From an uncultured Candidatus Saccharibacteria bacterium (lineage in GTDB: Bacteria > Patescibacteriota > Minisyncoccia > Phycocordibacterales > JAKAEA01), in assembly GCA_964532205.1 (NCBI GenBank), contig CAZHGQ010000004.1:3118-67117 (forward strand): a stretch of DNA of 64,000 bases, written 5' to 3'. The notes under the pieces are model-generated. The model saw only the letters and a program-made list of their open reading frames with translations, did not search any database and was not told the DNA's origin. Shown piece after piece: positions 26,562 through 59,828 of this stretch. The translations under genes were made by a program, and so were the position numbers. Every line of letters starts with the position of its first letter. Positions within the stretch are counted from its first letter, which is position 1.

Positions 26562-28154
26562 ATGAACCAAACTACTCCACGAATACTCTACATATACGCC
26601 AGAAAATCCTCTGAAAGTGAGGACCGGCAAGTTCAATCTATCGACGATCAGGTGAACCGCCTAAAGGAGCTGGCAAACAGTCTGGGAATCACTATCAAAG
26701 AGGTTCTGACAGAAGCTAAGTCTGCCAAGAAGCCGTATTGCCGACCAGTCTTCGATGACATGCTCAAACGCATTCAGCGAGGTGAGGCTGATGGCATTCT
26801 TTGTTGGCAACTTAATCGACTTTCTCGAAACCCCGTTGATAGCGGAGCTCTTAGCTGGATGTTGCAGCAAGGAGTTTTAAAATGTATTCAAACAATTGAT
26901 CGTCAATATTTACCTGATGATAACGTCCTTCTTTTTAGTGTTGAAAGTGGGATGGCAAATCAATTTATTATTGATCTTAAGAAAAACAGCATGCGAGGAA
27001 TGGTTGGAAAAGCTGATCGAGGTTGGCTACCCTCTCGTGCTCCGATGGGATATTTAAATGACAAACTCGAACATACAATCATCGAAGATAAGGACCGTTT
27101 TGATTTGGTCCGAAAGATGTGGGACGTGATGCTTACCGGCAATTACACTCCTTCTCAAATTTTAAAGACTGCAAATGATAAGTGGGGCTTTAGAACTCCC
27201 AAAACAAAACGAAGTGGTGGCGGTGAACTTGCCAACAGCATGATTTATAAGATATTCACCAACATCTTCTATACCGGCATGTTTGAATGGGCTGGAAAGC
27301 TGTATAAGGGCAACCATAAGCCCATGATTAGCCTTGAGGAGTTCGATCGGGTCCAAGCTATCCTGGGCCGAAACGGTAAGCCACGCGGCCAGACTCATGA
27401 GTTTGCATACACTGGCCTTATTTACTGTGAAGAATGTGGCTCGATGTATACCGCAAGTGAAAAAACCAAGTGGGTTGAAAGTGAAAAGAAGTTTAAAACA
27501 TATATTTACTATAACTGCACACGACGTAAGAAAGGAATCACCTGTACGCAAAGAAAACCGATTACGCTCGAAAAACTTGAGGAACAAGTAGACATTCAAC
27601 TTGAGCGATACAGCATTCTTCCTAAATTTAAAGATTGGGCTCTTGAGATTTTGAACAGAGAAAATAATAAAGAGATTGAGGACCGAACCAAGGTCTACGA
27701 GACACAGCATAAAGCAGTCGCCGAAACTCAAAAAGAAATCGACGCTCTTACCAAGATGCGTTATCGAGAATTGATTGATGATGAGACCTTTGTGAAAGAA
27801 CGTGACGATTTGAAAGCAAAACTTACCAAGTTAAAGGCCAATCTGCACAATACCGAAAACCGAGCCGAGAAGTGGCTAGAACTTACTGATAAGACATTTA
27901 ACTTTGCCTGCTATGCACGAGAAAACTTTAATTCTGGGACCTTGGAGAAGAAGCGAGAAATCTTTGCAGCACTTGGTTGGAACTTTTCAATAAAAGACAA
28001 AATAGTGAGCATTAAAGCCAATGATTGGTTTGTTCCAATAGAAAAAGCTTACCCAGAGCTTGAAGCTGAATATCGTCGGTTGGAACTACAAAAATACCTT
28101 TCAGCTGAGGCACGAAATGCTGCTTTTGCCTCACTCATTCTACGTTGGGGTTAG
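26562..28154 (+). CDS. Large serine recombinase rec1 (resolvase N-domain, recombinase domain, zinc ribbon, coiled coil)
   Basis: YARKSSESEDRQVQSIDDQ catalytic-Ser region. CEECGSMY...YYNCTRRKKGITC zinc ribbon. About 60% identical over the N-domain to 60008..61657. Stop codon lies inside the 268-bp inverted repeat. Confidence 0.85.
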   Translation: MNQTTPRILYIYARKSSESEDRQVQSIDDQVNRLKELANSLGITIKEVLTEAKSAKKPYCRPVFDDMLKRIQRGEADGILCWQLNRLSRNPVDSGALSWMLQQGVLKCIQTIDRQYLPDDNVLLFSVESGMANQFIIDLKKNSMRGMVGKADRGWLPSRAPMGYLNDKLEHTIIEDKDRFDLVRKMWDVMLTGNYTPSQILKTANDKWGFRTPKTKRSGGGELANSMIYKIFTNIFYTGMFEWAGKLYKGNHKPMISLEEFDRVQAILGRNGKPRGQTHEFAYTGLIYCEECGSMYTASEKTKWVESEKKFKTYIYYNCTRRKKGITCTQRKPITLEKLEEQVDIQLERYSILPKFKDWALEILNRENNKEIEDRTKVYETQHKAVAETQKEIDALTKMRYRELIDDETFVKERDDLKAKLTKLKANLHNTENRAEKWLELTDKTFNFACYARENFNSGTLEKKREIFAALGWNFSIKDKIVSIKANDWFVPIEKAYPELEAEYRRLELQKYLSAEARNAAFASLILRWG

Positions 28155-28414
28155 TCACTGCGCGCGACTCGATGCTTACTCTGCCCTCGGTAGGAATCGA
28201 ACAATTGGTAAAGGACAACGCCGCTCCACGGGTTCCTCACACCCCTCCAAGGGGGTGGAGGCCCACTACCTTCAAACCAGCGCTCTGTTGAGCGCTCATT
28301 CGTTCGTTGTGTTGAATTTGCCACCCCCGACTACCCGCCTCACGGCCCCTCACGGGGCTCACGCGGGTCACCCGGCTCACGCACCCGCACGCCGCTCAAC
28401 CACACGGGGTGGAG
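28147..28414 (+). repeat. 268-bp perfect inverted repeat, left copy (partner at 59561..59828)
   Basis: Compared base by base with the reverse complement of 59561..59828; identical over 268 bp. Confidence 0.85.
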
Positions 28415-28443
28415 TGAATACGCGAATCACAGCAGCGACATTA

Positions 28444-28461
28444 AGGACATTCAGATGTCCT
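28444..28461. promoter_or_regulatory. Perfect palindrome AGGACAT-N4-ATGTCCT about 130 bp upstream of the Pycsar-like effector gene; candidate operator
   Basis: Seen directly (aggacattcagatgtcct). Confidence 0.3.
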
Positions 28462-28588
28462 TTACCTGTACCACTACACGAGGTCAGCCACGCTACCTTC
28501 CAATGAAGAAAAGACACAGTCACCAAATCGCATTTGTCAATCTGAACTTCGCAGCAGTTTGAACGAATAAACACTATACTTACATCCC

Positions 28589-29497
28589 ATGATTGAGCGA
28601 TTCACGGGACCAAACGGCGGGGCAACGCTTAGTGACGCCATGTTGCAACAACGTATCGTCCAGCATGATGATGCGATTGCAAGGAAATTTATCGGATTAG
28701 GAACGCTGAATGAATACCAAGCTGGCAATGTGTTGATGGAACAGGCAGCCGCCGACGAAGCCGTTTTCTTCATTCTGGCTGGCGAAGTCAACGTTGAAGT
28801 AAATGGCCGGACCGTTGGTATCCGCACGGCTACTGAAACCGTGGGCGAAATTGCCGCCGTTGATCCCACTGCCCCACGGTCTGCAACCGTTCGCGCCGCA
28901 GGCGAAGTCGTGACGCTTCGCGTTGGGTCCGCTGACTTCATCAAAATTGCCGATGAACATCCCAAGGTGTGGAGAGCCACAGCACGAGTCATTGCTGATC
29001 GGCTCCGGCAACGGCATCGATTTCATCGTCCGCCTAATGCAAAGCCCATTCTGTTTGTGGGGTCTAGCGTCGAAGGGCTGGAAATCGCTAAGCACATCCA
29101 ACTTGGCATGAAGCATGACCCGGTAGAAGTTCGCATCTGGTCGAACGGGGTGTTCGGTCCTTCAAGCGTAACAGTCGACAAGTTACTTGCGCAAGTTGAC
29201 CAGTGCGATTTCGCCGCGTTTGTGTTCGGACCAGACGATCGCGTTGCGAGCAGGGACGAAAAATACGAAGCGCCTCGCGACAACGTTATTTTTGAAATGG
29301 GCATGTTTTTGGCCCGGCTTGGCTTGGACCGGACGTACATGGTGAAGGAACAGCGAACCGATTTGAAAATCCCCTCCGATCTTTTGGGGATTGCACCGTT
29401 GACATATGTTGCCGACGCCAAAACCAAAATCGACGTTACTCTCGGCCCCGTCTGCACGGAACTAGCTAAAAAATTGCGTGAATTGGGCTCAATCTGA
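28589..29497 (+). CDS. cNMP-binding domain fused to TIR-like/N-deoxyribosyltransferase-like effector domain (Pycsar effector-like)
   Basis: N-terminal cyclic-nucleotide-binding signature (FFILAGEVNVEVNG...VGEIAAV...RSATVRA). C-terminal ILFVGSS...FVFGPDD...NVIFEMGMFLARLG resembles the catalytic-Glu region of TIR/SLOG NADase-type domains. Confidence 0.65.
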   Translation: MIERFTGPNGGATLSDAMLQQRIVQHDDAIARKFIGLGTLNEYQAGNVLMEQAAADEAVFFILAGEVNVEVNGRTVGIRTATETVGEIAAVDPTAPRSATVRAAGEVVTLRVGSADFIKIADEHPKVWRATARVIADRLRQRHRFHRPPNAKPILFVGSSVEGLEIAKHIQLGMKHDPVEVRIWSNGVFGPSSVTVDKLLAQVDQCDFAAFVFGPDDRVASRDEKYEAPRDNVIFEMGMFLARLGLDRTYMVKEQRTDLKIPSDLLGIAPLTYVADAKTKIDVTLGPVCTELAKKLRELGSI

Positions 29498-29512
29498 AGA
29501 AGGATTACTGGA

Positions 29513-30205
29513 ATGGGACTAGCCGACGATCTCGAAAGCGAAGTGGCAGCTATTCTTCGCACCAAATGGGATGAGCGTGAGGGGCGCGTCGTTCCCGACA
29601 CAAACGACGTAAAACTTGGGAACGATGCTGTCACGCTCGATGGCACAGTTCTTTATGCCGACCTCGCCGACTCAACTGATTTAGTTATTGGTTACAAGCC
29701 TTGGTTCGCGGCCGAGATTTATAAGTGCTACCTGCATTGTGCCTCCAAAATCATCCGTGACGAAGGTGGTGTTGTCACCGCGTTTGATGGCGATCGTGTG
29801 ATGGCTGTATTCCTTGGGGACTTTAAAAACACGTCGGCTGCTCGCTGCGCCCTAAAGATTAATTACGCGGCTGCAAACATCGTCACTCCAGCAATTGAAA
29901 AGGAATATCCGAAAAGTCCCTACAAGGTACATCAATCTGTAGGAGTAGACACGAGTAAACTATTCGTCGCCCGAACAGGAATCCGTGGCTCAAACGATCT
30001 CGTCTGGGTTGGTCGCGCTGCCAACTACGCTGCAAAGCTCTGTTCGCTCCGGGAAGGTTTATACGCATCTTGGATTACCGATGCTGTCTACAGCATTATG
30101 GATGACAACGCCAAGTACAGTGATGGTAAGTCGATGTGGGAACAACGGACGTGGACGGCGCGGAACACAACTGTGTATCGGTCAAATTGGTGGTGGAAAC
30201 CCTAG
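29513..30205 (+). CDS. Minimal class III nucleotidyl cyclase (PycC-like)
   Basis: TVLYADLADSTDL and GDRVMAVF metal-binding and signature motifs of the CHD cyclase fold. About 230 aa with no regulatory domain. Confidence 0.65.
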   Translation: MGLADDLESEVAAILRTKWDEREGRVVPDTNDVKLGNDAVTLDGTVLYADLADSTDLVIGYKPWFAAEIYKCYLHCASKIIRDEGGVVTAFDGDRVMAVFLGDFKNTSAARCALKINYAAANIVTPAIEKEYPKSPYKVHQSVGVDTSKLFVARTGIRGSNDLVWVGRAANYAAKLCSLREGLYASWITDAVYSIMDDNAKYSDGKSMWEQRTWTARNTTVYRSNWWWKP

Positions 30206-30646: not shown

Positions 30647-30668
30647 AAGAGATTAACGAACGGCATGC

Positions 30669-34935: not shown

Positions 34936-37900
34936 ATGTCAGCGTATCTTTCCATCGATGAGCAACTTGCCCAGGAGTTTTACGATTGGGAACTCATTGG
35001 TCGGGGCTGGCAGGTGTGGGACGACCCGGTATCGCCAGAACCGCCGTTCCGACCATTCATTCGGAAGATGCCGCAATGCAGTCGTTCTGATGATGGCAGA
35101 GATCACAGTCTTCTGAGTGGTGTTATTGCTCGGCTTGCCAGACTCTTCGCCGGTCGACCCAACCTGCCTGTGGAACCCGAACCCACTTGGACACCGCTTC
35201 GGATCATCCATGATCCGCCACCCGTGGTGGAACTTGCGCTCGTCCCGCCTGCGGATTTTGATGCTTCGCAGCAGATGATGGCTCAACTGCTTGCTTCGCT
35301 TGCGATGGCGAATCATCCAATCGCATTTGAGATTCTCGCGAGCCAGAACACGATAGTATCGCAGTTCGCCGTTGCACAGAGTGATGCATCAGCAGTACGC
35401 AGTCAGATTCAGGCCCACTTTCCCGAAGTCGCGTTGAGTCAACAGACGAACGTTTTGAAGGATCGATGGGACGCTTCAGGTGAAGCCTCGCTCATCTTTG
35501 AGATCGGTCTCTCGCAGGAGTTCATGCGCCCGCTGCCCGTCCCGCCCAAACTCACGCCTGATGTGCTGGTCAGTGTCATGGGAGCAATGGAGGAAGTGTC
35601 CACCGACGAACTAGCGCTCATGCAGATGATCTTTGAGCCCGCCCGTTATCCGTGGGCAGCGAGCATGCTGCGAGCGGTGACCTTCAATGACGGCAGCGAA
35701 TTCTTCGATGCATCGGAAAGTGTACTCGATGAGACAAAGGAAAAACTCTCCCGTCCTTTGTATGCCGCCGTCATTCGACTGGCGGTTAAGACCGCCGATG
35801 AAGCTCGCACGTTCGAAATCGCCCGTTCCTTAACCGCTTCGCTCACCGCAGGTTTTCAAGGCTATGGCAATGACCTGATAGCTTTAAGCAATGATGAGTA
35901 TGATCCAGACGATCACGAGTTTGATACCCTTCATCGCCAGTGCCGACGCAGCGGCATGATCCTCAACAGCGATGAACTGGTGAACTTTGTTCACATACCT
36001 TCTTCCGCTGTACGCACCTCGAAGTTTACCCGGCAACTCAAACGCACCAAACGCGCTCCCGCCATTGCTGCTGGCAGAGATTGTGTTTTGGGTGAGAACT
36101 TCCACGCCGAACATACCATTCCTGTGGGTGTGGCTGCGGAAGAGCGCTCCAGACACATGCACCTCATCGGTGCATCCGGCACGGGAAAGTCGCAGTTGCT
36201 TTTGAACCTCATCGTGCAGGACATGGAACATGGCAAAGGCTTGGGGCTTCTCGATCCGCACGGCGATCTCGTGGACGACGTGCTTTCTCGCGTGCCCGAA
36301 GATCGAATTGATGATGTTGTGCTGCTGGATCCATCCGATGAGACGCACACCGTTGGCATCAACATCCTTTCTGCTAGAACCGAAGTCGAGAAAACCGTCC
36401 TCGCGTCGGATCTAGTAGCTGTGTTCCAACGACTCGCGACTAGTTGGGGCGATCAGATGACTTCAGTGCTTGGGAACGCTATCCTCGCGTTTCTGGAGCG
36501 TCCGCAGGGAGGTACGCTTGCCGATCTTCGACGCTTTCTCATCGAACCCGCGTATCGCAACGAAGTGCTTTCTTCCGTCACCGACCCGGAAGTCATCTAT
36601 TACTGGAAGAAGCAATTCCCCCTCATTCGCGGCATGCCGCTTGGCTCTGTGCTCACCCGACTCGACACGTTCCTGCGTCGCAAACCGATTCGGCAGATGG
36701 TCTGCCTCAAAGAAAAAGCTTTGGATTTCGCGGATATCATGGATCGCGGCAAGATTTTCCTCGCTCGCATCCCTCAGGGTTTGGTTGGCGAAGAGAATGC
36801 TCACCTTTTGGGCAGCTTGCTGGTGTCCAAGTTCTATCAACTGGCAATGGTGCGACAGCAGAGCGCCGCATCTCACCGCCGCGATTTCTATCTTTACATC
36901 GATGAGTTCCACCATTTTGTCACGCCGTCGATGTCATCCATTCTCTCTGAAGCGCGAAAGTATCGCTTGGCATTGATTTTGGCTCATCAGGAATTGCGGC
37001 AACTGGAAAGTCGCGGTGTGGATCTTTCGAGCGCCGTTCTTTCTCATCCGTATACCCGCATCTGCTTTCGTGTCGGAGATCAGGATGCCAAGCGTTTGGC
37101 GGAAGGGTTTTCGTTCTTCACCGCGGCGGATTTGCAGAGTTTGAGCACCGGTGAAGCCATCTGCCGCATGGAACGGTCGAATTACGATTTCAATCTTCGC
37201 ACAAAGCTTCTGCCAGAATTGGAATGGCAACGGGTTGAGGAAAAAAGAAGGAGTGTCATCGAGCGGTCGCGAGACCAGTTTGCTGTTTTGCGGAGTTCGC
37301 TAGTGGATGCCACGTCACTTACGACGGAGAGCTTCACCGCGGAGGAGATTGCGGAGCCAGAGGTCGAACCAATCATTGTGGAGCCGAAACCGGAGACTCC
37401 CGCACCGGCACCACGTCCAATCGCAAAGCCGCCGAAAGTGAAGCCGCTGGCGGATGAGCCCGCGAACCTGGGACGCGGCGGACCCGAACATCAGTATCTG
37501 CAACAACTCATAAAGCAGTGGGCGCAGGGTATGGGGTATCGAGCTTCTATTGAGGCGCCGTTGCCGGAGGGCGGAAGTGTCGATATCGCCTTGGAAAAAG
37601 GCAATCACCGCATCGCCTGCGAAACCAGTGTCACCAATACGCCCGCATACGAGGTCAGCAATATCCGCAAGAGTCTGGTCGCGAAGTATCAATACGTCGC
37701 GGTTGTGACGACCGACCTCAAGCACCGCGAGAAGATCGAAGCGGCGGCGGAGCAGTCATTAACTGACGCGGAGCTGAAGCAGGTGCGATTCTTCTCCCCC
37801 GACGAACTCTTCGCGTTTGTTCAAGAGTTGGAGGTAAACGACGCGAAGCAGGAGCGGCTGGTGTGCGGATACAAAGTGAAGACCTCGGTGCGCTCCACCG

Positions 37901-37986
37901 ACGCACAAGATCAAGCGATGCGGCAGCAGGCGATTGCCCAGGTCGTCGCTCGTTCGGTGACGCGGATGCGGAAAAAGAAACAGTAG
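34936..37986 (+). CDS. Large HerA/FtsK-superfamily ATPase (DUF87-like) with Pro-rich linker and C-terminal PD-(D/E)xK-like or DNA-binding domain
   Basis: Walker A GASGTGKSQ, Walker B IDEFHHF, ARKYRLALILAHQ (HerA-type arginine-finger region). Paralogous ATPase core to 53398..54690. C-terminal GGSVDIALEKGNHRIACE. Confidence 0.6.
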   Translation: MSAYLSIDEQLAQEFYDWELIGRGWQVWDDPVSPEPPFRPFIRKMPQCSRSDDGRDHSLLSGVIARLARLFAGRPNLPVEPEPTWTPLRIIHDPPPVVELALVPPADFDASQQMMAQLLASLAMANHPIAFEILASQNTIVSQFAVAQSDASAVRSQIQAHFPEVALSQQTNVLKDRWDASGEASLIFEIGLSQEFMRPLPVPPKLTPDVLVSVMGAMEEVSTDELALMQMIFEPARYPWAASMLRAVTFNDGSEFFDASESVLDETKEKLSRPLYAAVIRLAVKTADEARTFEIARSLTASLTAGFQGYGNDLIALSNDEYDPDDHEFDTLHRQCRRSGMILNSDELVNFVHIPSSAVRTSKFTRQLKRTKRAPAIAAGRDCVLGENFHAEHTIPVGVAAEERSRHMHLIGASGTGKSQLLLNLIVQDMEHGKGLGLLDPHGDLVDDVLSRVPEDRIDDVVLLDPSDETHTVGINILSARTEVEKTVLASDLVAVFQRLATSWGDQMTSVLGNAILAFLERPQGGTLADLRRFLIEPAYRNEVLSSVTDPEVIYYWKKQFPLIRGMPLGSVLTRLDTFLRRKPIRQMVCLKEKALDFADIMDRGKIFLARIPQGLVGEENAHLLGSLLVSKFYQLAMVRQQSAASHRRDFYLYIDEFHHFVTPSMSSILSEARKYRLALILAHQELRQLESRGVDLSSAVLSHPYTRICFRVGDQDAKRLAEGFSFFTAADLQSLSTGEAICRMERSNYDFNLRTKLLPELEWQRVEEKRRSVIERSRDQFAVLRSSLVDATSLTTESFTAEEIAEPEVEPIIVEPKPETPAPAPRPIAKPPKVKPLADEPANLGRGGPEHQYLQQLIKQWAQGMGYRASIEAPLPEGGSVDIALEKGNHRIACETSVTNTPAYEVSNIRKSLVAKYQYVAVVTTDLKHREKIEAAAEQSLTDAELKQVRFFSPDELFAFVQELEVNDAKQERLVCGYKVKTSVRSTDAQDQAMRQQAIAQVVARSVTRMRKKKQ

Positions 37987-39850: not shown

Positions 39851-40738
39851 ATGACGTCTACAAGAGGTGGGGTGAATATTGAACTTCAAGTACGCGATAT
39901 CGCGCTACTTCGTGACCTTTTTGAATCTCGATTCATGGCACTCCGGCACATCGCGGGCCTACATTTTGACTCTCGGCACGAGCCAGCCCGAAAACGAGTA
40001 TCTCTACTTTGCAGTGCAGGATACATCCGGGTGAGGGCACGCCACTTTAACGAACCTGCGCTGTACTTCTTGACCGCGCGCGGCATGCGACTTCTTTCGC
40101 AATACGGCCACTTAGGATCGTATCCTCATCTGTCTCGCGCGGTCTTGCAGAAGCGACTTGAGATAAGTTCACTAACTCTCCGGCATGAGCTCGATGTGCT
40201 GGATGTCAAAACGGCATTTGTGAACGCGACAAGATCAAACGCCAAACTCCGCATCGCAACCTTCTCAACGTGGCCGAAACTGCATTCCTTTCAAATGCTT
40301 TCAAGCGACGGGTCTGAAGTCATCGTAAAGCCTGATGGGTATATCGTCGTCCAAGAACCGCGTGCCGATTGCCCGCTTGTCATCCATCGATTCTTCCTTG
40401 AAGTCGACCGAAGCACCGAATCGCTTCGGGTCATTGACACGCGATGCAACGCATACGTCGACTATTACCGCAGCGGGGGCTTCGCTGTCGCAAACGGATT
40501 GTCATTCGACGATTATAAGCGTTTCCCATTCCGCGTTCTGATCATCACCAAGAGCGAAGAACGCCTGCAAAACATCGCCGACCGGATAAGCAAGACCGCT
40601 GGATCTCAGATTTGGCTTACGACACAGCGCGATTTCATAATCGGTTCGCTTGGGCAGATTTGGCGCTTGGTGAAACACGGCCACACTAACCAGCCGAACG
40701 ATCACAAGTCGCTCTTCATCACCCGCACCAATTTTTAA
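39851..40738 (+). CDS. Replication-relaxation (Replic_Relax) family protein
   Basis: N-terminal wHTH (DIALLRDLFESRFMALRHIAGL) and FFLEVDRSTE core motif. Confidence 0.6.
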   Translation: MTSTRGGVNIELQVRDIALLRDLFESRFMALRHIAGLHFDSRHEPARKRVSLLCSAGYIRVRARHFNEPALYFLTARGMRLLSQYGHLGSYPHLSRAVLQKRLEISSLTLRHELDVLDVKTAFVNATRSNAKLRIATFSTWPKLHSFQMLSSDGSEVIVKPDGYIVVQEPRADCPLVIHRFFLEVDRSTESLRVIDTRCNAYVDYYRSGGFAVANGLSFDDYKRFPFRVLIITKSEERLQNIADRISKTAGSQIWLTTQRDFIIGSLGQIWRLVKHGHTNQPNDHKSLFITRTNF

Positions 40739-47000: not shown

Positions 47001-48764
47001 ACCGTTATAGCTGTATGTGAGGCGTTCAAGAATAGCAGAGTCAGAAAGCCGTTTTCGCTCCACGGTGTTTGGCAATCCGGCAGCCGTGTAGTTGATCTTC
47101 GTTTCGTTCCCTGCCGAATCCACGTAGCGATCCAGTTGGCCACGCTGCAGCGACGCGATGCTGCTGCCGAAACCATGGAAATAAAACTTGTTACCCAACG
47201 TGTCTGTTACGCGGTATCCCGTGCCATCGACCACAAGCCGATCTAGGCTGAAATCACGTGCCACATAAGCAGAGCCGGTGTAATCAAACCACTGTGAGGA
47301 TCGACCACCGGCTACGAGAATCATGCTACTCGTCGCTTGAATCAGAGACGGCCACTGTGCCATGCTCCATCCAGCGCCATTGAGTGCATCGATTCCCTGC
47401 CCGCGAGAATTGTTCCACGTTCGTGTGTGACCCGAGACAATTCCGCCTTCCGCCGGGTCGAGGTCGGATGAGGTAAAGAACACCGAACCATCTGCATACC
47501 GAACAACACCGGAAAAGCCGTCGGTCATCGGATCACTGCTATCAGCACCTGTCGCGGTGCCACCTGGACGATCGGCAAGTGGGTCATTGAAGTATGATGG
47601 GGTTGCTCGGACGGCGGTCAGCCGAACTGTATCCATGTATTTACCGGGTGTTCCCGCGTTTCCATCCGGATCAACTTCCACAATAATGCTTTGTTCTGCG
47701 AGCGTAGGCGACGGTCTGACTGCCTCCACATAGAGCGTTGTGCCAAGCGCTTGGAATTGCGCCAGTGTATACGTAGTTCCGGATGTGCCTCCGGCAACAA
47801 AATCCGACACCGTGCGGGTTGCGTCCGAACCGTCTTTTTTCCAAAGGCGCAACCATCCAGCGGCGGGTGTGTCCGACGTCGTCGCACCGGAGCTCGGATC
47901 GGAACTGTCGTATGTAAGCTTGATTATCGCGGAAGACGTCAAACCGCTCGGAAGCGTGAGTTGAAGCGGTACAAATTTCAATCCCGTTGCCGTGTCATCA
48001 TTTGATGCTGACCCGTCACGGTTGTAGCCATCGGCAAAGTCGGGAATTCCATCGAGGTCAATGTCGCCATTATTAACGGTAATGATTTTGCCCGGTCGAC
48101 CAATGGACTCCTCGATATCCGTCTCTGAGCCGTTTCGCTCCGGCGACCCCGCACTGGTGTTGTCCGAGTCAATGGACACATCCATGCGCTTCACCGAATC
48201 TGCATAGTACGAAAAGAACAGCGTGTAGTCGTCATTATTCACTAATCCGTCGCCGGTCATATCACCTTGGGTATACTTGGCCCCAGTTGCACCAAAATTT
48301 CCCGCGAGAATGTTGAAATCAATGCTGTTTGCTTTCAGATCCCGATCAAAATCTCCTGGTTGAAATTCGAAGCGGTAGACATTACTCAGCGAAGGCGAGG
48401 CCGACGAAAGTGTAAGTTGGAAACTTCCTTTGGAGAGAATCGCGCCCATACCCGGAAATGTTACTTTCGCAGTGGCGGCATCCGGAAACGTCACGGTGGG
48501 CGTCGAGTTCGCAGGTGCCGAACCGGTCTCGATATCGATTAGCGAGAAGTTGGAGGCGCTCAAACCGCTGCTCACGGCATCACTAAAACGGTACACCACG
48601 CCTTGTGAGCCCGCTTGTGTGTAATCGAACGATGCTTCCATTAGCCGGACGGGGGCGCTGAGCAGTTGCCGACGTTCCAGTGCATCCATTGCACAGTGCG
48701 CAAGAAGACTATGAACGCTGGCACGATTCCGGCGAGAGCGACGATCCATGATGGCTCCTTCCAA
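41055..48764 (-). CDS. Rhs/YD-repeat polymorphic toxin (2569 aa) with dockerin-like N-region and C-terminal QHH (AHH-like HNH nuclease) domain
   Basis: GDMTGDGLVNNDD. Dozens of YD repeats (YxYDxxGR). Distinct about 120-aa C-terminal tail with RQHHLVPQ. Confidence 0.75.
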   Translation of the reverse strand: MEGAIMDRRSRRNRASVHSLLAHCAMDALERRQLLSAPVRLMEASFDYTQAGSQGVVYRFSDAVSSGLSASNFSLIDIETGSAPANSTPTVTFPDAATAKVTFPGMGAILSKGSFQLTLSSASPSLSNVYRFEFQPGDFDRDLKANSIDFNILAGNFGATGAKYTQGDMTGDGLVNNDDYTLFFSYYADSVKRMDVSIDSDNTSAGSPERNGSETDIEESIGRPGKIITVNNGDIDLDGIPDFADGYNRDGSASNDDTATGLKFVPLQLTLPSGLTSSAIIKLTYDSSDPSSGATTSDTPAAGWLRLWKKDGSDATRTVSDFVAGGTSGTTYTLAQFQALGTTLYVEAVRPSPTLAEQSIIVEVDPDGNAGTPGKYMDTVRLTAVRATPSYFNDPLADRPGGTATGADSSDPMTDGFSGVVRYADGSVFFTSSDLDPAEGGIVSGHTRTWNNSRGQGIDALNGAGWSMAQWPSLIQATSSMILVAGGRSSQWFDYTGSAYVARDFSLDRLVVDGTGYRVTDTLGNKFYFHGFGSSIASLQRGQLDRYVDSAGNETKINYTAAGLPNTVERKRLSDSAILERLTYSYNGINQLTGMLMERRNDLNAGAVEAVRNVEYEYYGGSDTTYGNPGNLKRVTVKQSGNAVERKLYRYDNYGRLILVLEGASYERALGREGMDPASVNQATLQPYANLVLDYYAADDSTVLRRNRVKTQTIQGSGTFSYDYAGPSSSTTGGRSGVNTWDSKTIESLPDSDNADLSNNDKNVVYTNSRGEVLLTSYSSPTATTAATWNTANQFDAKGRLTLTATPTAVASISDSNNHPATLQSATGLVHTFEYDPASATGYLWRTGRKQGTGGSQNLQVELTYSARPSATGGTPTSSAFVVASDTVYRSDASASAVTTSYSYSYSSDRITQRTTTLPDILQAQNGGTQTTSKTEIMAYDSFGRETSFTDGDGKVATNQYFDATGALKQSVVDSGGAPLTTGFEADLLGRNRKITDANTYMGLSTGITRSEYDDSAALKRVTITPPLPSSGNTPPAHVIIDNRATGVLDEIDVVRDSSGDLLSTVTKRTRTEHNIQQQATAVERFADTSGNAYTASTGALTGTTTRYRTEFGYDERGRQTRQAAGRDLYTGGSLSGFNPTITRTVYDGLDRAISTWVGTDDSSWSPGSPGTNMTKVTANEYDGGSVDGGNVGDDTLTKVTQIPGGSNADRVTAMRYDWRDRLVLTHEGVTSDTTVNSPITLCVFDNLDRCVGKGIYDGDGQNINSLNLGTVDSTLSAQRRAYQDTLFDDRGNVYEVRQYSVEQEWSGTAGTKGNYLTTSMWYDNRGNLIKQRNPGGLNQKMVYDGASRETKRYTTDGKDDPAPGASGNYTAAGSVSDDVVLEQVETSYDGNGNPTLIATGQRDHDKTDLGDLTSLNARISLVGNYYDSADRLTNQVNWGNNGDDGDANANGVRDFSRPSTAPGRDTAADGWDRWLQTDYVFDTAGRLQDVVSPRGVVTRTTYDALDRATIVQEGYRSSAPTADDTRKTLYTYNGFDQQTQIETTTYKSNTAYSYITTYNYGVTKNSTILVNHSGLLSSVVYGRPAGAYSGSGHREVMTGYTALGENRQQKEEIYNLSTSATQKQIREQRFNYDTLGRLTLTEWIDAASKPANMLDRGQKIRTRFDALSRGIEFTTLDSGTTVKNQVIRDFDGLGNLVTEWQEHKTSVARTGGTPSQKVQYVYTTDFGNNLTRLAKTVYPDGREVGVVYGYQDYTTSSTLVNFSRVLNDRISRVGFMVDGDPSTAVNNDRLERYEYLGLNRIVERNMPRVLSAGGVAVSFQGTTYIYDLDPASAVTMDWNQVADDAGRVNDQYGGLDRFGRVVIHDVGLEQRAYGYDADGNVLYSWLDSQDNFNGRWRSELYGSGSAPANQVYDQLGRVQSFVRGDGDYPGNFTYWLNTGSDKRGRLTSLNAPSVTTDSDGDPLPISSQNWDNIIDASVLTRDRSGTNTFDPPARLVFQRPVPTGNSPIQSTPVDNIDQRIDVFVQYDGLGRLASKTTVKLDEIFADPGNSQYQYAYDIPNAHTLTFDYDALGRRISETNSTQEVTGYQGTLHLFYDAAGNVIEEKQEQIDGTYRTQPQNQYVWSAGEPGRMVLRDNDDGSRVWVYSGPDGSVWRIREDFTSLAINREMYTYTTEGQVAVGQSTGTSTFDYKVDQYGRSTSSDGYRFRYLWRGGRDDGDGMLWMPNQTEHDSYRGTPQTEDGYAYQSYTAGGFFDGKNVEWTGVQEKDGFAGTQGQWSNPSTLDAWTDFSGKYDAFRPSAEWNADPYHLAKISGWAGTVALTVASGGTSALWYLAAGTAVGGAGGAIYSASTGADYWKSVEVGTNIGALAGSFPGAISRFSTTALRYADEGAQGALMLFSRTPPPALSIIGGQTVASVMGGGSTAASVFSGAAVNWGGVVGVGSTAVYSLSGSTPSGMVRNTSGYRARYGPAAMRQHHLVPQQLLKNSTFSNRLRALGYDPRKFVDQRITEIPYALHKTLHPEWNKQWELFANANPNFGVADIERQVKLLSEMYLVPRASRNFIRMYGR

Positions 48765-53397: not shown

Positions 53398-54690
53398 CTA
53401 TTGAATCCAGCGTCGCAGCTTTTCCTCGACGCAGTTCCTTCGGCTGCCGTACCGCTGGTGGGAACGCTGAACAAGCAGTCTGCTGCGTCCGCACGGCAGT
53501 TTGAGCGCGGCAAGCGTTCTCCCGCGAAATGGCTCTTGCTGCTCGCCATCGCGCATCAGTTTCGCGAGCACTCGAAAGTTCCCCAAGGACGAGAACTCTA
53601 CCGGGGCAAATGATCCGCCAAACTCACGGGAAATAGTTTGCGCATCACTCTCTCCCACTCGGAAACTCAGCATCGAGCCGACGTTACCAAACACGGCTTT
53701 GCGGATAAACTCCGGCACCTGATCCAGGTACTGATGACTCAAGGTCAAGCTGAGTCGGTACTTTCGAGCTTCGGAAAGAATCGATGAAAAACTCGTCGTT
53801 GAAAAGTTCTGAAATTCATCTATCGCCAGAAAAAAGTCCTGCCGCTTTTCTTCTGACACATTCACCCGACTCATCGCTGCGATCTCAAAGCTGGTCACGA
53901 GGATTGAACCAAGGAGATTCGCTTTATCTTCACCCAGCGCGCCTTTGCTGAGGTTCGCGATAAAGATGCGCTTGTGATCCATCATAAAACGAGGATCAAT
54001 CTTTCGTTTCACCTGTCCCAGGACGTGTCGCAGGGGTGGGGCCATGAGTAATTGACCAACCTTGTTTTGAATTGGCGCGATCGCTTCCTTCTGAAACCGC
54101 TTGTCATACCCCTCAAATTCCCGCGTCCAAAATGATCGGACGATGGGATCATTCACCTGCTTCACGACCCAACGGCGATAGTGTGGATCAACCAGCATTC
54201 GCTGGATGCCCAGGATTGATACATTCTCGCATTCGAGTAAAGCGGAGATCGCGGCAGACAAAATGTACTCAGTTCGTGGTCCCCAGGAATCCGACCAGAT
54301 CGCCTTCATGCTGCCAATCAATCCAGAAACGACACGGTGCCGCTGATTGACAGGCACAGACTGAAGCAAATTGAATCCAATTGGATATGAAAGATCGGCA
54401 GGATTGAAATAGACGACATCTTCGGTGCGGTTACGTGGAATATGATCCAGTACATCGCGAGCGAGATCGCCGTGAGGATCAACTAACCCGACGCCGCGGC
54501 CATAATAGATGTCCTGCAGAATCAGGTTTCGCAGCAGTGTGCTCTTGCCCGTGCCCGTTTTTCCCACAATGTACGTATGTTGGCGGCGATCTTCGGGAAG
54601 CACACCAAAAGGCAGCGTCCCATTCCAGACATCTCGATTGCCGATCCAGTTGATCGATTCATCATGAATGTCATTGTGCTCCTCGCTCAT
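53398..54690 (-). CDS. HerA/FtsK-superfamily ATPase (DUF87-like, 430 aa), paralog of the ATPase core of 34936..37986
   Basis: GKTGTGKSTLL, IDEFQNF, SEARKYRLSLTLSHQ. Confidence 0.65.
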   Translation of the reverse strand: MSEEHNDIHDESINWIGNRDVWNGTLPFGVLPEDRRQHTYIVGKTGTGKSTLLRNLILQDIYYGRGVGLVDPHGDLARDVLDHIPRNRTEDVVYFNPADLSYPIGFNLLQSVPVNQRHRVVSGLIGSMKAIWSDSWGPRTEYILSAAISALLECENVSILGIQRMLVDPHYRRWVVKQVNDPIVRSFWTREFEGYDKRFQKEAIAPIQNKVGQLLMAPPLRHVLGQVKRKIDPRFMMDHKRIFIANLSKGALGEDKANLLGSILVTSFEIAAMSRVNVSEEKRQDFFLAIDEFQNFSTTSFSSILSEARKYRLSLTLSHQYLDQVPEFIRKAVFGNVGSMLSFRVGESDAQTISREFGGSFAPVEFSSLGNFRVLAKLMRDGEQQEPFRGRTLAALKLPCGRSRLLVQRSHQRYGSRRNCVEEKLRRWIQ

Positions 54691-54909: not shown

Positions 54910-57378
54910 TCACTTTGACGCAGCTTTGCCACCCCCATCTGCAACAATTAGGGGATTGAGAGGGTTGTTCTTCATCGCATCCACTCGCATCTTCCATTTT
55001 TCCCACTCAACCCCCGACATTCGCACCTGACCAGCCGTTCGGAGACTTTCCAACTCGGCGAGATATGAGTTAACCGCCTTTACAAAGATTTCTCCGTCAG
55101 CACCGACGGGCGCAACCTCGCGCTCCAGCCTTCTCAGGAGCTTTTGGATTGCTGAGATTGAGACGTTGTCCTTATTCAGCCGATTGAAGTCGTTTATAAC
55201 ACGCTTAACTGTCTGAGTAGATGAGTACTTAAGCGTCACGGCGCGACTTCTCTCCAAAGCTTCGCGAATAAAATCACAAATTGCGATGACGTTCGCCCTA
55301 AGGGCTTCGTAAGCCTCTATCTCCTGATCGTCAAATCGCCCAGCTGAGAGATGAGATACAACCTCTTGAAGAACCCCCATCTTGTCGTACTCCCCGCCAA
55401 ATTCCGGCTTCACACCGCGGAACAGTGCTTTCGTCGATTCTACAAGGCCACCAGTTCCATATTCTGGAGACGCGACATGGTTTCGGCAGGTAGCCGCGTT
55501 TTTCTCCCAAGTCTCAGGCAACCATTTTTCAATGTAGTGCAACACCGCTTGCGCATACACGCACTTCGGGATGATGTCCTCTGTGGTGACGATCTGAACG
55601 TTGTCAGAAAAAGAAGTGACCAGAGTTCCAATTTGTCCGACAAACTGCACATCGATCAACTTCCGTTTCTTCTTCGGGTTATTGCCAGTGATGGTAGATG
55701 CAACATCGTTCGCAGGCGGATCAGAGTCTATAACAACAGCTGTCGGCGGTATCGGCTCGTCGGCCCATCGTGATTGCTCCAAGACATTCTCTACGTTTCC
55801 AACGCCATCGGCAGAAACGAACACCACGCTGTTAAGATCCAAAAACTGCCCGACGTTCTCCGGCGTGGCAAACACTCGGATCAGTTCAGTCAAAATGTAC
55901 TGGTCTGTGGCTCCCTCTAGTAAGATGTTGTCAGCACCAAGAAATAAACTGGGAGCACTATCGATACCCAGCGCGGTTCTTACAGGTTCATACCGTCTAG
56001 CCCGTGCCTGCTCGATGTATTGTGTACCTTCTTCCGATTCCTCTTTCTTGACAACCCGGATTCGCCGTGGAAAGTTTCTGTTGATTAGGTATGGCGAATG
56101 GGTCGTATAGATGAGTTGGCAGGTTTGATGCGACGATTCTGGGCTTACAAGTGATTCAAATACTGCCAGAAGGTTTCGTTGCCCCAGAATCGAAAGTGCT
56201 GAATCCGGTTCGTCCATTAAGATAATTGAGTTCCGGTTTTTGTGCGAGAGCTCCATTGCTTTTGCTTGAATGTAATAGCTAAGAAAGTAGCGGAGCCCGG
56301 AACTTCGTTCGCGAAAGGTGTAGATAGAGTCAGTCTTATCTCTGATTTCGAAATAGACCACCCCATCCTTGCAATTCATGGACAGTGAAAACTGCTCATC
56401 CTGCTTCCAAAAATGCGAAAGATTGAGCTTGTCATTCAACTCATCGTTCCACTTCGCAATCTGTCCTTCCACATACCCGCGATCGTTTTGATCGCGTTCA
56501 TAGATGTAGCGTAGTGTCTCTGGAGTTATTTCAAGAATCTCTCGGAACAATTGCATCTCAAGCCCATCCGGAGAGACGTGCTGTCCGGGGATGGCATCAA
56601 TCGACTTCTTGGCGTTTGAAAGTGAGGTGAGAAACTCTTGACCAACTGCGTTTTGTGGCGGAGGTGGCGTGAGCCGCCGAATAACGCCAGCAGCTTCCTC
56701 CATCTTTTTCCTATCCAGCAATCCGACACTTTCAAAGGCTTTGTCGCCGCTAGCAACAAGAAGAGACGCCAGCGGAATTTCGCTGGCAAGCTGGGCCTGC
56801 GAGTGGATATATCTGACTGTAGGAAGGAGCGCTCGCACCCTACTAAGTTGCGATTCATCCAAGAGGACTGCTTGCTCGGATGGTTCGATGTAAATCCTCG
56901 CGGGCTTCTTCGGCTCTTCGTCGGGTGCCAATATCAAAACGAAATGTTTAGACTCTGGACTTCCACTCGGAGAAACAGCCCCGCCGATCGCACTACTTAG
57001 CGCCGTTGACTCTTCCGCATTCTCAATCTCAAAACGCAAGCCGATGTTCGGCCAAGCTTCAACATTTCGGGTCCGGATTCCCGCAAAATGGCAGAGATCG
57101 GTCCGCTTGAACACGTCTCCAGATTCGATTCCCTTCCCTGTTGCGACCTTACTTATCGCATTGAGTAGGTGCGACTTGCCGCTCTCGTTGGCTCCTACGA
57201 TTGTTGTGATGTCGCTTTCTACCGGAATTTCGATGAATGGGAAGATATCTTGTGCAGCAAAAGATGGCGACATTTTGTTCCACGGTCGGTACTCACGCGT
57301 CTCACCCTTTTCGAATGTCCCGCGGTAATTGAGATGAAATGACTTGTACCAACGCAACAGCACTGCTCGAAGTTTCAT
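54910..57378 (-). CDS. OLD-family ABC-ATPase fused to TOPRIM nuclease plus about 250-aa C-terminal extension (Gabija GajA/PARIS/OLD-like)
   Basis: N-terminal ABC ATPase (GANESGKSHLL; signature SSGLRY; Walker B IILMDEPDSALS; TTHSP H-loop). TOPRIM LLEGATDQYIL...VSADGVGNV. Confidence 0.6.
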   Translation of the reverse strand: MKLRAVLLRWYKSFHLNYRGTFEKGETREYRPWNKMSPSFAAQDIFPFIEIPVESDITTIVGANESGKSHLLNAISKVATGKGIESGDVFKRTDLCHFAGIRTRNVEAWPNIGLRFEIENAEESTALSSAIGGAVSPSGSPESKHFVLILAPDEEPKKPARIYIEPSEQAVLLDESQLSRVRALLPTVRYIHSQAQLASEIPLASLLVASGDKAFESVGLLDRKKMEEAAGVIRRLTPPPPQNAVGQEFLTSLSNAKKSIDAIPGQHVSPDGLEMQLFREILEITPETLRYIYERDQNDRGYVEGQIAKWNDELNDKLNLSHFWKQDEQFSLSMNCKDGVVYFEIRDKTDSIYTFRERSSGLRYFLSYYIQAKAMELSHKNRNSIILMDEPDSALSILGQRNLLAVFESLVSPESSHQTCQLIYTTHSPYLINRNFPRRIRVVKKEESEEGTQYIEQARARRYEPVRTALGIDSAPSLFLGADNILLEGATDQYILTELIRVFATPENVGQFLDLNSVVFVSADGVGNVENVLEQSRWADEPIPPTAVVIDSDPPANDVASTITGNNPKKKRKLIDVQFVGQIGTLVTSFSDNVQIVTTEDIIPKCVYAQAVLHYIEKWLPETWEKNAATCRNHVASPEYGTGGLVESTKALFRGVKPEFGGEYDKMGVLQEVVSHLSAGRFDDQEIEAYEALRANVIAICDFIREALERSRAVTLKYSSTQTVKRVINDFNRLNKDNVSISAIQKLLRRLEREVAPVGADGEIFVKAVNSYLAELESLRTAGQVRMSGVEWEKWKMRVDAMKNNPLNPLIVADGGGKAASK

Positions 57379-57612: not shown

Positions 57613-58029
57613 TTGCTGCGCGCAGAAAGGGTGGCCATGCCACGCAAACAAAAGGTACGACGCTTTGATCCAGGGTTTCATTGTGTTTCGCAGCTAAGTT
57701 TGGAAGAAGAAGCGCGGTTTCTACACCGCGAGGTCGAGAATAGTTTAATCGCCTCTCCCGCCGAACTCGACAAGCTGCGGATTGAGCGACACACCCATTG
57801 CGAACAATCCTGGCAACACCTTTGTTGTCTTCTCGCTCACGTAGCGGAGAAGGATCGCCGAGTATTGCAGGCACTTCTCTTCCGCGACCTATGGTTTGTG
57901 GTCGAATTGTATCGCACCTACCTCAAAGCCAACGCAGAGGACGCGCCACCCATCCGTCAGCACGCGAAGCCTTCAACGGCCCTTGAATTCAGCGATTTTC
58001 TCTTTGACCTTCAACCCCGAAAGGAGTGA
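57613..58029 (+). CDS. Hypothetical protein, translationally coupled to the primase
   Basis: Stop codon at 58027-58029 with primase ATG at 58032. Preferred over the Arg-rich antisense ORF 57302..57874. Confidence 0.35.
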   Translation: MLRAERVAMPRKQKVRRFDPGFHCVSQLSLEEEARFLHREVENSLIASPAELDKLRIERHTHCEQSWQHLCCLLAHVAEKDRRVLQALLFRDLWFVVELYRTYLKANAEDAPPIRQHAKPSTALEFSDFLFDLQPRKE

Positions 58030-58031
58030 CC

Positions 58032-59138
58032 ATGAGTTGGATAGACTTTCGTAAATTGCGTGAGTCCGTGTCATTTAAGCAAGTGCTCGCCCACTACAAG
58101 ATCGAGCTACGAATCACAGGTGACAAAGCCACCGGGTATTGTCCTTTGCCCACACACAAGGGCGAGCGGCGGTCGCCGTCATTTTCTGTAGAGCTTTCGA
58201 AGCGAATATTTCAATGCTTTGGCTGCGGAGCTAAAGGCAACCTGATCGACTTCGTCTGCTACATGGAGGGTAAGAACCCTCGGAACGGTGCTGACGTGCA
58301 TCAGATCGCGATGCTTATCCACCAGACGTTTTTGGAAACCCCAGCTACTCCCCCAGTGAAAGCACCACCGCCTACCAAACCGTCTGTGCCCAAGCCGGTG
58401 TCAACTGCAACAAAGGCGTTGCCCGATCCCACCATCCCTGTTGTGATCAACGCTCCGCTCGATTTCGAGCTAAAGGAGCTTGATCCCGATCATCCGTATC
58501 TGCTTGGCCGCGGCTTCACCGCAGAGACTATCAACCATTTCGGCTTAGGTTTCTGCAACCGTGGCACCTTCAAGGGGCGCGTCGTGATCCCGCTCCATGA
58601 TCTGAAAGGACGTTTCCTTGGGTATTGCGGGAGAATCACCAGCGACAAGCTGATCTCTCCCACGTGTCCAAAGTACAAGTTCCCGCCGCCGCGAGAGCAT
58701 GAAAGAGCGATTCATGAACTTCGCAAATCGCACTTCTTGTATAATGGACATCGCATCAAATCACCGGTGCAGGACTTGATTGTCGTCGAGGGATTTCCAT
58801 CCGTGTGGTGGTTGTGGCAACATGGGCACACCAACACAGTATCGGTGATGGGTGCAGCCTGCTCTAGCGAGCAAGCGCAACTCATCATCAAACACGTCGC
58901 AGCTGATGGGCATGTCTGGGTATTTACCGACGATGACGAAGCGGGCTTACGCTGCGGCGAAAGCCTGCTGAGTCTCATCGCGCCTGAACGGTTCGTCAGA
59001 TGGTTACAACCCATCCATGGCACGCAGCCAACAGATTGCAACGCAGAACACCTCGCCGAACTTCTGCCGCTTGGAACATCGACAGATGCACCCAAAGCGA
59101 GTTCTCGCACGAGAAAACCACTTCCACGCACTGCGTGA
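58032..59138 (+). CDS. DnaG-like DNA primase (CHC2 zinc finger plus TOPRIM), plasmid/phage type
   Basis: CPLPTHKGERRSPSFSV...FQCFGCGAKGNLIDFV and LIVVEGFPSV TOPRIM. AAGGAG RBS before ATG at 58032. Confidence 0.7.
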   Translation: MSWIDFRKLRESVSFKQVLAHYKIELRITGDKATGYCPLPTHKGERRSPSFSVELSKRIFQCFGCGAKGNLIDFVCYMEGKNPRNGADVHQIAMLIHQTFLETPATPPVKAPPPTKPSVPKPVSTATKALPDPTIPVVINAPLDFELKELDPDHPYLLGRGFTAETINHFGLGFCNRGTFKGRVVIPLHDLKGRFLGYCGRITSDKLISPTCPKYKFPPPREHERAIHELRKSHFLYNGHRIKSPVQDLIVVEGFPSVWWLWQHGHTNTVSVMGAACSSEQAQLIIKHVAADGHVWVFTDDDEAGLRCGESLLSLIAPERFVRWLQPIHGTQPTDCNAEHLAELLPLGTSTDAPKASSRTRKPLPRTA

Positions 59139-59185
59139 GTCATCAATACAGAACGACCAGCACTGGTCGTTCTTTTCATCTGAGG

Positions 59186-59449
59186 TCATTCCTTCATTCG
59201 CCTAATCGTCTTTGACAACACCGCAACGAGTTTGTTTGGGTTTGCTCCGCGGGCTAGCACCAACGCAATCATCATGATCTTCGAGAAAAACATAGCGGCA
59301 GCAATTCCTCCGATCGCCGCATACGCCGCCGCCAGCACACAAAAAACGACGACCACTCCAACCGTAACCCATCGTTCCGCCTGACTTACAACTGTCATCT
59401 TTCCCCCTTGTGAGAAACAGCAACTGGCTGTCGCACCGTGCGACATCAC
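59186..59449 (-). CDS. Small membrane protein (hypothetical)
   Basis: Two hydrophobic helices. Confidence 0.3.
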   Translation of the reverse strand: MMSHGATASCCFSQGGKMTVVSQAERWVTVGVVVVFCVLAAAYAAIGGIAAAMFFSKIMMIALVLARGANPNKLVAVLSKTIRRMKE

Positions 59450-59560
59450 ACCCCACTATCCCTATATAGCCAGATAGACGCGCATTAAGTTCCCCGAGCA
59501 ACTTTCCTAGGAAAAATGAGATTTCCAATCCATGCAGAGCAGTAATCAACTAAACGGGTT

Positions 59561-59828
59561 CTCCACCCCGTGTGGTTGAGCGGCGTGCGGGTGCGTGAGC
59601 CGGGTGACCCGCGTGAGCCCCGTGAGGGGCCGTGAGGCGGGTAGTCGGGGGTGGCAAATTCAACACAACGAACGAATGAGCGCTCAACAGAGCGCTGGTT
59701 TGAAGGTAGTGGGCCTCCACCCCCTTGGAGGGGTGTGAGGAACCCGTGGAGCGGCGTTGTCCTTTACCAATTGTTCGATTCCTACCGAGGGCAGAGTAAG
59801 CATCGAGTCGCGCGCAGTGACTAACCCC
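59561..59828 (-). repeat. 268-bp perfect inverted repeat, right copy
   Basis: Reverse complement identical to 28147..28414. Confidence 0.85.

Follow-up and report, generated by a model that had tools for sequence, protein, structure and literature searches.

Putative stacking of serine recombinase islands at a tRNA-His gene, with a predicted second, inverted attP, in an uncultured Candidatus Saccharibacteria genome

Serine integrases rank among the leading tools for inserting long stretches of DNA, and structural work is actively asking what sets the direction of their reaction. They recombine short attP and attB sites with a staggered cut at a central dinucleotide, in one direction only unless a directionality factor is present. 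In archaeal viruses and plasmids, the partitioned ('suicidal') integrases of the SSV1 type (SSV1, pTN3; Badel et al.) are tyrosine recombinases that are split mid-gene. Here we describe a locus that invites comparison with both, found in a window of 64,000 nucleotides (the whole stretch analysed; contig CAZHGQ010000004.1, positions 3,118 to 67,117) from an uncultured Candidatus Saccharibacteria bacterium. In this window a GC-rich element encoding a large serine recombinase, rec2, lies between a tRNA-His gene and a low-GC island that has a large serine recombinase of its own, rec1. The overall explanation that we favour, and consider likely, combines serine recombinase islands stacked at tRNA-His, an inverted copy of the element attachment site (attP) retained beside rec2, a switch of the recombinase C-terminus upon integration, and a lock on the integrated state. 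The features of the locus are listed below; the 268-bp arm is called alpha, and the final 97 nt of the rec2 frame are called beta.

26562-28154, plus strand: rec1, large serine recombinase of the resident low-GC island (530 amino acids, aa; Pfam Resolvase, Recombinase and Zn_ribbon for its cluster)
28147-28151, plus strand: site 1, core GGGGT, predicted attL (rec1 end/alpha), from junction comparison
28147-28414, plus strand: arm A (alpha), predicted P' arm of attP, from self-comparison
28415-59560: cargo as a whole, from matches to Pfam and PADLOC-type profiles
59561-59828, minus strand: arm A', inverted alpha copy, part of the predicted spare attP
59824-59828, minus strand: site 2, core ACCCC; on the minus strand beta/GGGGT/alpha, a predicted intact inverted attP
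59824-59920, minus strand: arm B, inverted copy of beta, part of the predicted spare attP
60008-61657, plus strand: rec2, large serine recombinase of the GC-rich element (Pfam Resolvase, Recombinase and Zn_ribbon_recom)
61433-61529, plus strand: arm B' (beta), 3' end of rec2, predicted P arm of attP
61525-61529, plus strand: site 3, core GGGGT, predicted attR (beta/tRNA-His)
61525-61598, minus strand: tRNA-His (GTG), predicted integration target, from tRNA detection; its 3' terminal ACCCC is the core
61638-61722, minus strand: tRNA-Leu (GAG), host marker, in synteny with the empty-site contigs

Attachment junctions at tRNA-His

Self-comparison and string comparison of the window showed that 28147-28414 and 59561-59828 are inverted copies of each other over 268 nt, 100% complementary and separated by 31,146 nt, a match that makes a chance origin impossible. 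The initial annotation had reported this repeat with the same coordinates, together with a rec1 gene ending 8 bp inside its left arm (TAG stop at 28152-28154) and a rec1-like gene outside its right arm (rec2 starts 180 bp past it), and we reproduced all three statements exactly. It had also called the two recombinases orthologous, a term that overstates their relationship: they are homologous (E = 2e-70) but only 31% identical. A second inverted repeat, 59824-59920 and 61433-61529, which the initial annotation did not mention, flanks rec2 over 97 nt with one mismatch (99% identity); on the left it shares 5 bp with the right 268-bp arm, and on the right it ends within tRNA-His.

The core GGGGT is common to three junctions, namely rec1 end/alpha (site 1), beta/alpha on the minus strand (site 2) and beta/tRNA-His (site 3), which in serine-integrase terms would be attL, an intact inverted attP and attR, respectively. 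The 268-bp repeat would owe its length to a complete second attP of approximately 360 bp sitting inverted upstream of rec2. Repeats of this length had been remarked upon as unusual for serine recombinase elements, and rightly so, although the true ends of the element are still short cores.

Comparison with related contigs identified the unoccupied site that the initial annotation had proposed to look for. In seven contigs (L001-L007), rec1 orthologues of 98-99% identity lie directly against tRNA-His with the junction sequence ...ctacgtt/GGGGT/gcctagag..., followed by tRNA-Leu(GAG) in L001, L003 and L005, the contigs that are long enough, and by tRNA-Val(TAC) in L001 and L005. This tRNA-His/tRNA-Leu/tRNA-Val order is in synteny with the window. 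The intact rec1/tRNA-His junction of these relatives identifies 28152-61529, a segment of 33.4 kb with approximately 53% GC, as an insertion between the resident rec1 island and the tRNA gene; the suggestion that one element had entered the att site of another was therefore correct, the GC-rich element lying exactly at the junction of the rec1 3' end and tRNA-His. All 20 members of the rec1 cluster at 90% identity share ...LILRWG and then diverge at once; the window copy now terminates as LRWG inside the foreign alpha arm, compared with LRWGA or LRWGG in relatives. At the other end, the tRNA-His gene now reads ...CACCCC-T instead of the ...CACCCCA of relatives, so that position A76 is encoded as T and the terminal A must be added post-transcriptionally.

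The base composition follows the same boundaries, with a GC content of 0.39-0.45 over 8-28 kb, a sharp step at 28.1 kb, 0.49-0.57 over 28-61 kb and 0.46-0.49 beyond approximately 61.5 kb. The segment between the 268-bp arms had been described as richer in GC than everything outside, but the GC-rich block runs past the right arm and through rec2 to approximately 61.5 kb. A large transposon with terminal inverted repeats, one of the architectures initially envisaged, does not fit these observations: the right 268-bp arm is internal to an element that goes on for 1.7 kb to the tRNA gene, no direct duplication was found in the window sequence at 28415/59560, and no transposase domain was found among the element proteins with Pfam. 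The junction comparisons instead point to an older low-GC rec1 island that was present first and a GC-rich element that was stacked on it later at the 3' end of tRNA-His. This insertion removed the tRNA half of the junction of the rec1 island, so that the older island is probably trapped unless the newer element leaves first.

Layout and reading frame of the rec2 family

From its domain matches, rec2 is predicted to be a large serine recombinase with an N-terminal catalytic domain (PF00239, E = 4.9e-20), a recombinase domain (PF07508) and a zinc ribbon (PF13408) with a long coiled coil, the latter seen in the AlphaFold model of family member P0093 as long helices at 338-441 between the zinc-ribbon strands. 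The resolvase-type catalytic domain is also present in members of the rec1 cluster, and these enzymes are 530-550 aa long. In a search of 5.8 billion proteins rec2 was at most 52% identical to any relative, and its matches to SprA, TP901-1 Int, CcrB and XisF were weak, all far below family cut-offs. Among the candidates scored, the rec2 clade comprises 6150 database proteins at E <= 1e-20, whose hosts are uncultured Patescibacteria, Omnitrophota, Planctomycetota and members of other phyla. Plasmid and phage records contained no rec2 relative above 31% identity and a viral collection only 6 weak loci of the family, indicating that it is neither phage-borne nor found in cultured replicons.

We carried out a census of 162 loci encoding rec2 relatives of 40-51% identity (from 80 GTDB genomes, 80 metagenome contigs and 2 viral contigs) by self-comparison and tRNA detection; exact look-ups of rec1 and rec2 in the contig index gave no hit, and their genomic context was drawn from cluster members and collection scans. 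A near-perfect inverted repeat (B/B') flanks the recombinase gene in 136 of the 162 loci, and in 81 of the 85 that have enough flanking sequence, with one arm upstream of the recombinase start and the other overlapping the 3' end of its open reading frame (ORF); B arms have a median length of 106 bp, at 99.2% identity. In 84 loci B' has the 3' end of a minus-strand tRNA gene at its outer end (Ser 45, Gln 20, Asn 7, Ala 4, Arg 3, Asp 3, Lys 1 and Leu 1). The full layout, A, cargo, A', B, recombinase, B' and tRNA, is present in 35 loci, with A arms of 99-434 bp (median 199 bp) and a median overlap of 6 bp between A' and B, and the logic of three sites was confirmed junction by junction in 25. 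A complete genome (L046) has the B/B' pair only. Within a locus the arms are identical and between loci they differ, which implies that they evolve in concert. These comparisons mark the double inverted-repeat layout as a hallmark of the rec2 family; rec1-type elements have no spare inverted copy, making it a clade-specific feature. Numerous contigs start or stop exactly at an arm, and repeats at these positions explain why metagenome-assembled genomes fragment at these genes.

The smallest whole elements, of 3.0-4.0 kb, consist of the recombinase gene, often a 70-aa HTH_3 gene that is divergent from it and adjoins A', and one variable gene (e.g. a methyltransferase or a multicopper oxidase). 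No replication genes and no universal directionality-factor gene were found in these minimal elements. One contig (L043, 251-11509) carries three family units in tandem at a single tRNA-Ser, with AT-rich spacers of approximately 180 bp.

The census also bears on whether the window is a chimera of two unrelated genomes joined through a collapsed repeat, as the initial annotation had allowed. Such an origin would be in keeping with the sharp GC step at 28.1 kb, with a locus known from a single metagenome-derived contig and with the many family contigs that break at repeats, and assemblies from short reads are ambiguous across these repeats. However, nothing beyond the 5-bp core is common to the flanks and the ends of the insert (3-13 bp are shared between junctions in relatives), which is too short for an assembler to have made the joins; both outer junctions coincide exactly with the core that rec1 orthologues use at tRNA-His; and 35 further assemblies, produced by a variety of projects and assemblers, have the three-site layout, one of them a contig of 1.8 Mb (L024). 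We therefore regard an assembly artefact as highly improbable.

Integration at the tRNA gene also alters the recombinase itself. The rec2 ORF crosses the core at codon 507 and continues through tRNA-His to a total of 549 aa, whereas in the attP form it would run 46 codons into alpha to give 553 aa, with a stop at 28289-28291 inside a terminator-like hairpin (28279-28296, AGCGCTC-tgtt-GAGCGCT) that is followed by a T-rich run. Across the family, the frame passes at the integrated junction from beta into the tRNA gene, encoding residues such as ..RRGWDSNPR.., and at the beta/alpha junction it enters alpha, where it closes with a conserved peptide such as WRCVLDEVRMYFGQNPQDFDE, WLRILNEIRTFFKENPEQE or LLSFLNEVRTFFAENPQN, each directly followed by a stop codon. 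This tail consists of a linker and then a helix with the consensus ..LL(D/N)(E/K)(V/I)RT(F/Y)FxENP.., and is rebuilt at beta/alpha in the majority of 23 triple-site loci; a strict pattern recovered it in 74 of 101 loci. Its entropy at codon positions 1, 2 and 3 is 1.10, 0.87 and 1.32 bits, a pattern of variation that argues for coding selection on the tail. Among 120 database homologues at least 14 have the conserved tail (12 by pattern in place, a few more by eye) and 42 a tRNA-encoded one. When a full-length member was modelled with AlphaFold, residues 482-497 came out as a disordered linker and residues 500-513 as a confident terminal helix (predicted local distance difference test score approximately 87). 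On this evidence integration swaps the C-terminal tail of the recombinase for tRNA-encoded residues.

Two DNA motifs of alpha deserve mention. We considered that its conserved TTCGAAC-like motif might be a DNA mimic of the tRNA T-arm and nothing else, and rejected this because the codon-position pattern indicates coding selection as well; a dual role, as DNA mimic and as coding sequence, is possible. The inner part of the arm (28330-28400, inverted copy at 59575-59645) contains four to five CTCACG repeats spaced 9-11 bp apart (cctcacggcccctcacggggctcacgcgggtcacccggctcacgc), which could be candidate binding sites for an accessory protein.

Recombinase orientation and proposed function

The recombinase gene converges on the tRNA gene in nearly all census loci, a bias of approximately 12:1. 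In six loci (L023, L044, L055, L064, L138 and L152) the tRNA gene lies upstream, with its CCA end against the inverted beta arm. The orientation of the cargo is fixed, the helix-turn-helix (HTH) gene standing beside A' in 12 of 12 loci, which shows that the cargo does not flip freely. The 31-kb segment of the window had been thought possibly invertible; the single contig is compatible with this, but the fixed orientation in the family speaks against it.

We propose the following sequence of events. The element would insert by conservative recombination at the GGGGT core, the terminal ACCCC of the tRNA gene. If the conserved tail is needed for normal function, a recombinase that integrates through its 3' attP would truncate and thereby lock itself, like an SSV1-type 'suicidal' integrase, and this self-locking would lead to the dominance of the integrated state in which the recombinase converges on the tRNA gene. 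The spare inverted attP would preserve an intact 3' end of the gene. A promoter-like site at 61778-61751 (minus strand) would transcribe both tRNA genes and then rec2 in antisense; recombination between B and B' would invert the recombinase segment, restore the full-length gene and make it co-directional with this site. No serine integrase is known to react attP with attR, and homologous recombination would be the probable route of such an inversion. A full-length gene would likewise result if the element integrated through its spare copy. We hold the specific functions of lock and spare copy only tentatively, as rather less probable than not, and think it somewhat more doubtful that the clade controls its own activity and direction in place of a separate directionality factor, with the inverted attP as a built-in unlocking device.

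Several observations weigh against this proposal, whose functional part is built on comparative patterns. The lock model leaves unexplained why the A arms, with their median of 199 bp, are longer than tail and terminator together, and the cargo lies between the longer repeats yet is fixed in orientation. An attP and attR pair is not an expected substrate of known serine integrases, so that the inversion would need homologous recombination. The orientation with the tRNA gene upstream is rare (approximately 6-8 of 162 loci); five of the six contigs stop at the downstream arm, and an intact tail was never seen directly there. The one that reads past the repeat (L152) belongs to a subfamily that lacks the conserved tail. 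Genes with a full-length tail can also arise in tandem arrays, from the 3' end of one recombinase and the alpha arm of a neighbour (L175, L179). Finally, rec2 is an outlier of the family, at no more than 52% identity to any relative, and its attP-frame tail (LVTARDSMLTLPSVGIEQLVKDNAAP...) matches the family motif only weakly.

The contigs with full-length tails illustrate other contexts. A neighbouring element can complete the recombinase ORF of another (L175, L179/L180), and in the pairs L175/L176 and L179/L180 the recombinase gene lies between beta repeats but is joined by two different alpha arms, each with a motif-bearing tail; from their arrangement these represent putative episome-like or tandem contexts. 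In the contigs L175-L180 the state with the tRNA gene upstream was not found, and the spare copy is readable in L175, L176, L179 and L180.

The ORF that crosses the core and the conservation of its tail would equally suit a recombinase whose isoforms encode direction, the full-length protein made from the circle integrating and the tRNA-tailed form excising, with the spare attP acting solely as operator or terminator. The recombinase would then autoregulate the divergent HTH/rec promoter region, and the terminator would block read-through from the tRNA genes. The spare copy does lie between the divergent HTH gene and the recombinase gene, its window version does have a terminator-like hairpin, and the 3.0-4.0 kb elements offer no directionality-factor candidate except the optional 70-aa HTH_3 protein. 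An operator or terminator, however, needs no near-perfect identity over 100-600 bp that includes 30-45 codons of the recombinase 3' end, and the prevalence of an integrated form proficient in excision would demand tight repression, for which there is no evidence. We judge this explanation, both for direction and for autoregulation, to be unlikely.

Still less probable is a programmed inversion or an isomerising episome whose main function would be to flip the 31-kb cargo and/or the recombinase in the manner of Hin/Gin or of 2-micron FLP, for instance for phase variation or copy-number amplification. The predicted circle would be split into two unique segments by two long inverted repeats that bear cores, and the element of the window has a primase and a Replic_Relax gene; nevertheless the cargo is fixed in 12 of 12 loci and the recombinase is biased approximately 12:1, neither of which is expected of a freely flipping segment, and two attP sites are, to our knowledge, not normally recombined with each other by serine integrases. 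One contig (L143) has a perfect terminal inverted duplication of 2071 bp that holds the whole recombinase unit (1-2071 and 9496-11566). This is either both isomers of a circular element, as an isomerising episome would produce, or a walk through the assembly graph. Amplification of the 2-micron kind was rejected as a general role on the grounds that minimal family members have no replication genes.

In two loci (L094, 33-1940; L147, 9706-11531) the recombinase gene lies between inverted tRNA genes of the same type, an arrangement suggesting that another tRNA gene had reacted with the spare attP and that host DNA was inverted as a result. Capture of a second attB could thus be its purpose, leading to cassette exchange between inverted tRNA genes or to fusion with another replicon or chromosomal site, and several hosts (L043, L055, L057) have divergent tRNA-Ser pairs at the target. 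Such products are rare, however, at 2 of 162 loci; most targets are single tRNA genes, and intrachromosomal events would invert or delete host DNA and are likely to be costly by-products. We consider this purpose improbable and rank it just below programmed inversion. A single-stranded fold-back attP in the manner of CTXphi or integron attC was discarded by reasoning, as cutting both strands of the stem would leave hairpin-capped chromosome ends.

Cargo, novelty and comparison with known systems

The remaining genes of the inserted element are as follows.

28589-30205: Pycsar PycTIR and PycC (PADLOC, E = 1e-110 and 3e-102)
34936-37986: coupling-protein-like gene (TrwB/TraG-like ATPase)
38267-39850: third large serine recombinase, 527 aa (PF00239, E = 2.4e-34)
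39851-40738: Replic_Relax protein, relaxase-like (E = 8e-22)
41055-48764, minus strand: RHS protein, 2569 aa
52826-53320: MarR regulator
53398-54690, minus strand: HerA/TrwB-like ATPase
54910-57378, minus strand: AriA/Old/GajA-like ATPase
58026-59138: DnaG-type primase

By its gene content the GC-rich element appears to be an integrative, probably mobilizable element loaded with defence and toxin genes. At the extreme left end of the island is a complete Pycsar anti-phage system, in which a PycTIR effector (cyclic nucleotide-binding and TIR) is followed by the PycC cyclase, and the 2569-aa RHS-repeat ORF (41055-48764, minus strand) is polymorphic-toxin-like and very large for a genome of the Candidate Phyla Radiation (CPR). 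The coupling-protein-like product has TrwB_AAD_bind and TraG-D_C domains; mating-pore genes were not found in the element, and the matches of its proteins to curated conjugation models were far below cut-off. The Replic_Relax gene follows immediately on that of the third recombinase, and the two (38267-40738) could be a nested element or a module for resolution or mobilization. The only relative of this recombinase at 90% identity (P0137, in L174) has unrelated surroundings, which yielded no second copy of the island.

The resident rec1 island encodes a copper-type P-ATPase, DsbD, a C5 methylase and a DUF5659-HTH_36-rec1 module. Within it, a C5 DNA methylase gene lies beside that of an HATPase_c_3 protein (15636-18813, minus strand) and a heavy-metal P-type ATPase gene beside that of a DsbD-like/HMA protein (19128-24116, minus strand). 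Elsewhere in the window, three tandem paralogues of 942, 817 and 879 aa (52-7976, minus strand) form direct repeats with a period of approximately 2.65 kb and 60-84% identity; the 879-aa paralogue (5337-7976), the one gene of the three that was tested, had no Pfam match. For a flanking pseudouridine synthase every named homologue is of the Parcubacteria/Paceibacteria type, which places the host among the Patescibacteria.

A large serine recombinase and an island that targets a tRNA gene are of known kinds. The att-spanning ORF with a conserved tail, the obligatory inverted spare attP and the abutting pair of inverted repeats appear to be new: we found no description of an inverted-attP architecture in the literature that was covered, which is incomplete and leaves many subscription journals outside. 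An attachment site within the frame of its own enzyme, a C-terminus changed by the reaction and an inverted second site would amount to a self-contained integrate-and-lock module of 3 kb. The window also suggests that CPR bacteria with small genomes are able to take up islands of 33 kb laden with defence and toxin genes, and that stacking of islands rewrites the resident recombinase.

The rec2 family resembles serine-integrase elements and prophages (phiC31, Bxb1, TP901-1 and SPbeta with SprA; Tn5397 TndX, Tn4451 TnpX, SCCmec Ccr and Anabaena XisF) in its resolvase and recombinase domains, zinc ribbon and long coiled coil, in its short att cores and in the conservative insertion that leaves no target duplication. 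It differs from all of these in targeting the extreme 3' end of tRNA genes, in an ORF that spans attP, in the inverted second attP upstream and in minimal elements that have no universal directionality-factor gene. As in SSV1-type elements, attP lies inside the ORF, the recombinase gene is disrupted when the element enters a tRNA gene, and copies in the integrated state build up; unlike them, the rec2 family has serine recombinase domains only, loses a tail of approximately 20 aa and keeps a spare inverted 3' end.

Inversion switches that swap the 3' end of a gene (Mu G and P1 C with Gin and Cin, the R64 shufflon and hsdS invertons) are alike in having crossover sites at the outer ends of the repeats, a gene 3' end that depends on orientation and, as with hin, the recombinase inside the segment. 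Those switches depend either on tyrosine recombinases or on small serine invertases that work with an enhancer and Fis, and both orientations are common, whereas in the rec2 family a single orientation prevails and integration takes place at these very sites; large serine recombinases, a cargo fixed in 12 of 12 loci and a strongly biased recombinase orientation set it apart from Hin/Gin systems. The yeast 2-micron plasmid is likewise a circle split by two inverted repeats with target sites and has its recombinase in one unique segment, but FLP is a tyrosine enzyme that serves replicative amplification, and minimal members of the rec2 family have no replication genes.

The element shows the features of a tRNA-targeting island, with insertion at the 3' end of tRNA-His, rec2 at the junction and an unoccupied site in L001-L007. 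As in the tandem accretion of islands at tRNA genes, a second island has entered the tRNA-proximal junction, both in the window and in the tandem array of L043. The rec2 family goes beyond plain tandem accretion in that the 3' end of the resident recombinase is accepted as the left half of the target, and the C-terminus of that recombinase is rewritten by stacking, to LRWG and a stop in rec1 of the window and to new alpha-encoded tails in L175 and L179.

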